Source: a virus (taxonomy: Duplodnaviria; Heunggongvirae; Uroviricota; Caudoviricetes). From it: a stretch of 6,136 nucleotides of DNA. Location: positions 1 through 6,136 of IMG/VR virus record IMGVR_UViG_2778261249_000001; one strand, given 5' to 3'. The notes below the pieces were generated by a model. The model ran no database searches. It was not told the DNA's origin and saw only the letters and a list, made by a program, of their open reading frames with translations. Below, piece after piece: positions 5,029-6,136 of this stretch. Made by a program: the position numbers and the translations under genes. How positions within the stretch are numbered: position 1 is the first letter of the stretch; each line of letters starts with the position of its first letter.

Positions 5029-5688
5029 ATGAAAATGAAATGGTATGAACTGGCTAGATCCAGAATGAAAGAGCTCGGCATAACTCAAGAGAAGTTAGCT
5101 GAAGAGCTTGGTATGACGCAGGGTGGAATTGGTCACTGGTTGCGCGGATCTCGTCATCCATCTCTTGACGAGATTGGTGTGGTGTTTAAATACCTTGGTA
5201 TTGATAACGTCTCATTCAACCACGACGGTACATTTTCACCTGTTGGCGAATACTCATCTGCCCCCGTTAAAAAACAATATGAGTACCCTGTTTTTTCTCA
5301 TGTTCAGGCCGGGATGTTCTCGCCTGAGCTTAGAACCTTTACCAAAGGTGATGCGGAGAGATGGGTCAGCACAACCAAAAAAGCCAGTGATTGTGCGTTC
5401 TGGCTTGAAGTTGAAGGTAATTCCATGACCGCGCCAACAGGATCCAAGCCAAGCTTTCCTGACGGGATGTTAATTCTCGTTGACCCTGAGCAGGCTGTTG
5501 AGCCAGGTGATTTCTGCATAGCCAGACTTGGTGGTGACGAGTTTACCTTCAAGAAACTGATCAGGGATAGCGGTCAGGTGTTCCTACAGCCACTAAACCC
5601 GCAATATCCAATGATTCCATGCAATGATAGCTGTTCCGTAGTAGGGAAAGTTATCGCCAGCCAGTGGCCTGAAGAGACATTTAGTTAA
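5029..5688 (+). CDS. cI: CI prophage repressor, 219 aa: non-lambda N-terminal HTH domain fused to a lambda-type S24 autopeptidase/dimerisation C-terminal domain
   Basis: From about residue 84 (nt 5278) to the end, [38 protein letters not shown]…[13 protein letters not shown] matches lambda CI near-identically as I recall it, including the Ala-Gly cleavage site, catalytic Ser (EGNSMT) and Lys (FKKL). The N-terminal 83 aa ([40 protein letters not shown]…) are unrelated to lambda CI. I place the start at ATG 5029 rather than the ORF-track TTG 4987; ATG 5035 is an alternative. Confidence 0.9.
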
Positions 5689-5720
5689 CAGCCTCACAAC
5701 TCTAAAACACACAACAATAA

Positions 5721-5748
5721 CCCGACCTTAGCGTCGGGTTTTCTTTTT
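5721..5748 (+). terminator. Rho-independent terminator immediately after cI
   Basis: Stem CCCGAC (5721-5726) and GTCGGG (5733-5738) with a 6-nt loop, followed by TTTTCTTTTT (5739-5748). Confidence 0.65.
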
Positions 5749-5800
5749 CCAAAATATAAACCCATTAAATACAAAGCGTTATAAAAAACTAATTATATTT

Positions 5801-5840
5801 AGAACATTTTGTATTGACTCGATAAAGTACAAATCGTACT
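5801..5840. promoter_or_regulatory. Candidate OL operator sites overlapping PL
   Basis: AGAACattttGTATT (5801-5815, overlaps the -35) and AGTACaaatcGTACT (5826-5840, overlaps spacer and -10). Centres are 25 bp apart. Same dyad family as the OR candidates. Confidence 0.5.
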
Positions 5841-5842
5841 AT
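5814..5842 (+). promoter_or_regulatory. PL-like promoter for N
   Basis: -35 TTGACT (5814-5819), 17-bp spacer, -10 TACTAT (5837-5842). Predicted start near 5849 (ATCAGCAGG…), which is where the lambda-like N leader sequence begins. Confidence 0.65.
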
Positions 5843-5882
5843 TTAGCCATCAGCAGGATGCACTAACCACCATGAAGGTGAG

Positions 5883-5912
5883 GCTCTTAAAAATTAAGCC
5901 CTGAAGAAGGGC
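5883..5912 (+). promoter_or_regulatory. nutL (boxA and boxB) in the N leader
   Basis: boxA-like GCTCTTAAAAATTAA (5883-5897) followed by the boxB hairpin GCCCTGAAGAAGGGC (5898-5912), matching lambda nutL. Confidence 0.8.
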
Positions 5913-6069
5913 AGCATTCAAAGCAGAAGGCTTTGGTGTGTGTGATACGAAACGAAGCATTGGCCGGAAGTGCGAATCCGGATTAGTTGCCAATGTGCCA
6001 TTGCGGGGTGTTTTCGTTCAGGACTACGACTCCCACACACAACCAAAGCTAACTGACAGGAGAATCCAG

Positions 6070-6136
6070 ATGGATGCACAAACACGCCGCCGCGAACGTC
6101 GCGCAGAGAAACAGGCTCAATGGAAAGCAGCAAATC
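6070..6136 (+). CDS. N: Antitermination protein N, first 22 codons only; gene continues past the right edge
   Basis: ATG 6070 preceded by AGGAG (6058-6062) with 7-nt spacing. Translation MDAQTRRRERRAEKQAQWKAAN matches the lambda N arginine-rich N-terminus (the boxB RNA-binding motif). Confidence 0.9.
   Translation, partial: MDAQTRRRERRAEKQAQWKAAN

Follow-up and report, generated by a model that had tools for sequence, protein, structure and literature searches.

A VT2-Sakai-type CI repressor with a lambda-type self-cleavage module in the early region of a lambdoid phage

The window analysed here, a stretch of 6,136 nucleotides comprising positions 1 to 6,136 of the IMG/VR virus record IMGVR_UViG_2778261249_000001 (Caudoviricetes), carries a lambdoid early regulatory region that runs in the opposite direction to the lambda map (Table 1). 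The lambda reference is J02459 (locus L001), and lambda cI was translated from that record. A replication module (1269-4117, minus strand) consists of a Phage_rep_O-type initiator and a primase-helicase rather than lambda O and P, and the same module is found in Sf101, mEp043, SEN22, epsilon34 and some Stx2a phages. Where the primase-helicase gene starts (1237-1270), a block of 32-34 bp shows 97-100% identity to the ren/nin146 junction of lambda (40568-40599); it also occurs in AP005153 and Dewey in otherwise unrelated surroundings. This block looks like a conserved gene-boundary sequence and could act as a recombination linker. Among phage records and complete Escherichia coli genomes, contiguous coverage of the window does not exceed 82%. 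The combination of this replication module with the immunity cassette and a lambda-like N and cII is a mosaic of its own.

Table 1. Features of the 6,136-nt window, in order of position.
Feature	Position	Strand	Remarks
Toprim/DnaB-like primase-helicase, 626 aa	1269-3149	-	
Phage_rep_O initiator	3257-4117	-	
nutR-cII block, lambda-like	4249-4695	-	98.2% nt identity to lambda 38248-38694 (blastn); bounds the cassette on the other side
cII	4289-4582	-	Pfam Phage_CII
cro-like gene, 71 aa	4702-4917	-	Pfam HTH_3; paralogous to the CI N-terminal domain
OR region (intergenic)	4918-5028		between cro and cI
OR operator-like sites	4946-5019		4946-4960 AATACGATATGTACT; 4979-4993 AATACATCTTGTGCA (weak); 5005-5019 AGTACAGAGCGTAAT
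pR-like promoter	-35 at 4973, -10 ending 4944	-	overlaps OR sites (promoter scan)
cI repressor gene	5029-5688	+	ORF from ATG 5029 to TAA 5686-5688, 219 aa
CI N-terminal domain: HTH DNA-binding domain and first part of linker	5029-5277	+	non-lambda; VT2-Sakai/Stx2-II immunity type
CI C-terminal domain: lambda-type cleavage-site region and S24 catalytic/oligomerization domain	5278-5688	+	Ala94-Gly95, Ser132, Lys175
Lambda-like block of the C-terminal domain	5278-5682	+	93.8% to lambda (blastn)
C-terminal sub-segment with higher divergence from lambda	5583-5688	+	17/106 differences, vs 11/305 before nt 5583
Terminator after cI	5711-5746	+	stem 5719-5740 and T run (terminator scan); 89% to lambda 35800-35835, downstream of rexB (blastn)
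OL/pL operator-like sites	5768-5842	+	5768-5782 AATACAAAGCGTTAT; 5801-5815 AGAACATTTTGTATT; 5826-5840 AGTACAAATCGTACT
pL-like promoter	5814-5842	+	TTGACT-17-TACTAT; overlaps OL sites
pL leader, lambda-like	5848-6136	+	with nutL and start of N; 95.5% nt identity to lambda (blastn)
nutL boxB	5898-5912	+	alignment
Start of N	ATG 6071 onward	+	within the lambda-like block

Two further start candidates exist for cI besides ATG 5029, namely ATG 5035 and ATG 4993, the latter being used in deposited annotations (231 aa). As ATG 4993 lies inside the operator region, the longer version is probably an over-extended call. A leaderless PRM transcript would fit a start at ATG 5029, and the AAGGG at 5023-5027 would have the better Shine-Dalgarno spacing for ATG 5035. 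A Pfam search assigned residues 11-58 to HTH_3 (PF01381; E = 8.3e-11) and residues 87-209, as a full-length match, to Peptidase_S24 (PF00717; E = 8.9e-29). The C-terminal domain (CTD) matched the lambda CI structures 3bdn, 8gmu, 2ho0 and 1f39 in the PDB with E values of 1e-64 to 1e-96, and its fold can be regarded as settled because of its sequence identity to these solved structures. In the alignment, Ala94-Gly95, Ser132 and Lys175 correspond to the Ala-Gly site, Ser149 and Lys192 of lambda CI (mature numbering), and they are invariant among lambda and seven other homologues. The protein thus has the N-terminal HTH_3 domain, C-terminal Peptidase_S24 domain, Ala-Gly site and Ser/Lys dyad of a self-cleaving repressor of the LexA/CI type. 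A pseudogene was also considered and rejected on the basis of the intact open reading frame and a dN/dS of 0.03.

Comparison with lambda CI divides the protein sharply in two. BLASTP gives near identity over residues 84-218, and 133 of 136 residues are identical over residues 84-219, the three differences being C122, D200 and S219 in place of Ser, Glu and Gly in lambda. In a codon alignment, 383 of 411 nt of the CTD are identical to lambda (93.2-93.8% across methods) as against 100 of 249 nt (40%) and 18 of 83 residues in the N-terminal domain (NTD), a contrast with a Fisher p of 5e-51. Homology in blastn begins exactly at nt 5278 (residue 84), and in the nucleotide alignment the identity over a sliding 30 nt climbs, between 5259 and 5288, from about 0.5 to 0.87 or more. 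At synonymous sites the NTD is saturated (pS 0.81) and the CTD is not (dS 0.34, dN 0.009), which indicates a recombination boundary rather than unequal constraint. The dN/dS of about 0.03 for the CTD against lambda shows that this module is maintained under strong purifying selection.

The joint falls in the inter-domain linker, or hinge, about 10 residues upstream of the Ala-Gly scissile bond. Residues 84-218 align with positions 1-135 of the lambda CI chain 8gmu, essentially end to end, and residues 83-212 similarly match the 2ho0 chain, which its depositors named 'cI101-229'; since the lambda-like block covers both chains, the shared unit is the whole cleavage-site region together with the catalytic and oligomerization domain. 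These results agree with a sequence-only reading of the same DNA, which had proposed near identity to the lambda CTD from about nt 5278, a joint inside the gene and in the linker rather than at a gene boundary, and an intact Ala-Gly site and Ser/Lys dyad. The pairwise alignment with lambda CI that it had recommended gave a sharp break-point and not uniform moderate divergence. Its description of the first 83 residues as unrelated to the lambda NTD was, however, overstated. Both NTDs belong to HTH_3, and the BLASTP and PDB 3bdn alignments pass through residues 11-83, so that the CI NTD is a distant homologue of the lambda NTD with the same HTH_3 fold, not a foreign one.

Divergence from lambda is not even within the CTD. 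It amounts to 3.6% before nt 5583 and 16% after it, a split reached by only 3 of 2000 permutations. Many of the sites in 5583-5688 are alike in lambda and the Stx phage but not in the window. This second, minor mosaic step therefore suggests another short exchange, with an unsampled allele as its source. The lambda-identical block of one E. coli protein (P0042) starts within the CTD itself, near residue 123. Together with the step at nt 5583, this indicates that break-points in cI are not confined to the linker.

The surroundings of cI are organized in similar blocks. No homology to lambda was detected by blastn in 4696-5277 (cro, OR and the NTD) or in 5747-5847 (OL/pL), so that the immunity cassette is split into two non-homologous patches with the lambda-like CTD between them. 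In addition, rexA and rexB are absent between cI and OL (5689-5847), while the terminator that follows rexB in lambda has been kept. The cII of phage Dewey was called as a gene of 354 bp (equivalent to window 4289-4642); the lambda-type start is ATG 4582, and the Dewey annotation is probably over-extended.

Within the two patches, six candidate operators, three at OR and three at OL, share the 15-bp pattern ARTAC-N5-GTAYT. The four best candidates from the pattern search cluster at OR and OL; the middle OR site (4979-4993) and OL3 each have three mismatches to the palindrome. Genome-wide, the pattern was found six times against 1.29 expected, which is only modestly above chance (six were reached by 1 of 200 shuffles). 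The record of the Stx1 phage AP005153 has operators annotated at the corresponding positions, and the half-sites of all six are kept relative to that phage, while the spacers and the inter-operator DNA diverge. The cro gene has no homology to lambda DNA and is 98.2% identical in nucleotides to the Stx1 phage cro, so the cognate Cro is conserved along with the operator half-sites. Cro and the CI NTD are 35% identical and have a common TQGxIGHW helix, which fits both proteins reading the same sites.

The window therefore does not belong to the lambda immunity group: only 18 of 83 NTD residues are shared with lambda, Cro is of the HTH_3 type and the OR and OL DNA is non-homologous. Wild phages of the imm-lambda type are reportedly the subject of work published by Degnan and colleagues in 2007. 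The window does have the attributes of the VT2-Sakai/Stx2-II/Nil2 immunity group, with 80 of 83 NTD residues including an identical HTH segment, the same Cro and the same operator half-sites.

VT2-Sakai, the Stx2 II/Stx1 phage of Morioka V526, Nil2, 1717 and YYZ-2008 share with the window the CI NTD, its joint to a lambda-type CTD, Cro and the operator half-sites. The Stx-phage cI is 92.9% identical to the window in nucleotides overall, with three amino acid differences in the NTD and four in the CTD, and the OR region is 82% identical. The flanks differ, however: in the window, cII, nutL and N are of the lambda type and cI is followed by OL without intervening genes, whereas cII and N of the Stx phages are HK022- and HK97-like and additional open reading frames lie between cI and OL. 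Lambda CI (P03034; 3bdn, 1f39, 2ho0) is like the window protein at residues 84-219, including the Ala-Gly site, the Ser/Lys dyad and the oligomerization surfaces; in contrast, the window NTD is 18 residues shorter, its operators are unlike those of lambda, its Cro is of the HTH_3 type and not of the lambda Cro family, and rexAB are missing. Dewey matches window 4298-5935 at 94.9%. The replication genes of Dewey, vB_EcoP-720R6, 683R2, Louie and phi458 differ from those of the window, Dewey having an O-like initiator and a DnaC-like loader with an HNH insertion.

This architecture is already known, and the window CI is an ordinary repressor of a previously described type. High C-terminal and low N-terminal homology between the VT2-Sakai and lambda CI proteins was described by Fattah et al. 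(2000; Genes Genet Syst 75:223), as cited in PMC10742460. A classification of Stx-phage repressors unites the VT2-Sakai/Stx2-II-type CI and lambda CI, with 61% overall identity, in its 'Clade I' (PMC8951638). Similarly, the epsilon34 repressor is about 80% identical to lambda in its protease domain and about 50% identical to L, VT2-Sa and Nil2 in its NTD (PMC2629481). This repressor, gp46, thus follows the same published pattern as the window CI, and the epsilon34 replication module (O and toprim primase-helicase) is 88% identical to the window in nucleotides; gp46 nevertheless has a different immunity type and a more diverged CTD, the NTD identity in related Salmonella phages being 53-55%.

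Very probably, then, the window CI is a functional repressor of the known VT2-Sakai/Stx2-II/Nil2 immunity type (Clade I), resident in a non-Stx lambdoid/P22-like E. coli phage, working on the lambda model and bearing an old, inherited joint. The HTH_3 NTD would read the 15-bp sites, three at OR and three at OL, and the paralogous Cro would read the same sites. Residues 84-219 would supply the lambda-type module with its cleavage site, dyad, and dimer and cooperativity surfaces, and because of this module repression, cooperativity and RecA*-stimulated cleavage should follow the lambda model. Dimers of CI are thus predicted to occupy the six sites cooperatively, by way of CTD contacts like those of lambda, and to repress pR and pL; CI probably also autoregulates PRM, whose -10 overlaps the 5005-5019 site. 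Upon activation of RecA (RecA*), self-cleavage at Ala94-Gly95 would part the NTD from the oligomerization domain and lead to prophage induction. Cleavage of this particular allele is predicted from its 98% identity to the lambda module, and the substitutions C122, D200 and S219 in the CTD may bear on its rate.

RecA-dependent inducibility, which the sequence-only reading had also expected, is reasonable to infer from the intact state of the cleavage site and dyad. Mutants of lambda CI of the ind and hypercleavable classes provide a general basis for altered cleavage rates, and the linker and the NTD context can also alter such rates. It is nevertheless improbable that this CI is intact but poorly or not at all inducible through RecA, with induction depending on another factor, for example an antirepressor: conservation extends to every catalytic and cleavage-site residue, 8gmu and 2ho0 are matched essentially end to end, and the low dN/dS shows that the module is maintained.

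The joint is by no means peculiar to the window. Identical copies of cI occur in phages Dewey (PQ850600) and vB_EcoP-720R6 (ON470605), copies of 98.8-99.8% nucleotide identity in 683R2, Louie and phi458, and full-length copies of 92.9% identity in dozens of Stx phages (e.g. Stx2 II, Nil2, 1717, YYZ-2008 and the PA series). Overall, the same combination of NTD and CTD is present in more than 60 deposited phages, including VT2-Sakai, and 776 of the 5426 complete E. coli genomes (about one in seven) have a full-length copy. Matches to cI were found at 1428 places in 1207 of the complete E. coli genomes, roughly 110 to 220 of which have two or three such genes. In several further E. coli genomes among the matches listed, the similarity begins only at query nt 250 (window nt 5278); the one such genome that was checked has a lambda-type cI (98% amino acid identity). 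The joint also stands at the same position in the Stx phages, whose flanks are unrelated. Further, the CTD alleles of the window, lambda and the Stx phages are roughly star-like (93.2%, 91.5% and 92.9% nucleotide identity), with nearly all differences synonymous, and since the three alleles are about equidistant, the joint is old and the direction of exchange cannot be assigned.

These observations bear on the picture implicit in the sequence-only reading, in which a lambda-immunity phage lately gained a foreign NTD. The recombination joint itself stands, but not the notion that it is special to this phage, and it is arbitrary to call one domain foreign on a lambda chassis when the exchange is old. 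The flanks do suit a recent, window-specific event, since cII, nutL and N are 95-98% lambda-like and the backbone resembles that of lambda. Such an event is highly improbable even so: the window CTD is no nearer to lambda than the lambda and Stx alleles are to each other, the same joint recurs in Stx phages and in the 776 genomes, and a CTD dS of 0.34 is far above what is expected of a recent transfer, with the cII block 98.2% identical. The suggested search with the NTD alone for its donor did identify the immunity type (VT2-Sakai/Stx2-II) but, in the phage collection, no donor in which this NTD is joined to another CTD. Matches there were either at least 95% identical and already joined to a lambda-type CTD, or at most about 55% identical over full length; a 60-80% band seems, judging from the matches listed, to consist of partial matches. 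The NTD is 95-96% identical in amino acids to the Stx-phage CI proteins (VT2-Sakai, 95.2%), followed by those of the Salmonella phages g341c, SPN9CC and ST64T (53-55%).

Modularity of the repressor is also evident from the other side of the joint. A search with the CTD alone gave 375 homologues, and among the 120 listed at least three large NTD types, along with minor ones, are attached to this CTD family: one in proteins of 212-216 residues that begin MKTMHEIIGERIK, that of the window CI, and that of lambda. NTD and CTD identities are decoupled among these homologues. Whatever the NTD type, CTD similarity within this set (P0001-P0120) tends to track the host genus, with the best E. coli matches at 97-100%, Salmonella, Citrobacter, Enterobacter and Klebsiella at about 79-89%, and Providencia, Plesiomonas, Edwardsiella and Serratia at about 60-66%. 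E. coli also has more distant CTD lineages, at 63-68%. A single history shared by the whole of cI with lambda, in which diversifying selection for a new immunity simply made the NTD diverge faster and purifying selection constrained the CTD, has in its favour that the two domains are under very different constraint and that both NTDs are HTH_3 homologues, but it is scarcely credible given that it predicts equal synonymous divergence in the two domains, contrary to the pS and dS found, that identity changes within about 15 nt, that the same CTD family carries at least three NTD types, and that the flanks show the same block pattern.

An old and widely inherited recombination boundary is the preferred account of the joint, with one edge of the immunity cassette lying inside the cI linker, immediately upstream of the self-cleaving module. 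Its persistence is attributed to the reassortment of immunity types among lambdoid phages by homologous recombination within the conserved CTD and the flanks, of which a repressor of this kind is an expected outcome. In annotation, this cI is correctly named a VT2-Sakai-type (Stx CI Clade I) repressor that carries a lambda-type S24 module; a lambda-immunity label would be wrong. The window offers a clean textbook case of an immunity cassette split around a conserved self-cleavage module. It is already established that mosaic boundaries in lambdoid phages can coincide with the borders of protein domains and not only with those of genes, and any novelty would rest solely, and rather doubtfully, in possible cross-talk of heteroimmune co-resident prophages through their shared CTDs.

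Within one E. coli population, heteroimmune repressors have in common a CTD module for dimerization, cooperativity and cleavage that is 97-100% identical in protein sequence, and some genomes carry two or three copies; mixed dimers or higher oligomers could therefore form between co-resident repressors, although this is put forward tentatively and as rather unlikely. If they do form, the immunity and the induction thresholds of the co-resident repressors would be coupled or poisoned. Such mixing might underlie the cross-immunity between lambda and VT2-Sakai found by Fattah et al. (2000), as cited in PMC10742460. It might also be the selective reason for the extreme conservation of the CTD at the protein level (dN/dS 0.03 at a dS of 0.3-0.46).
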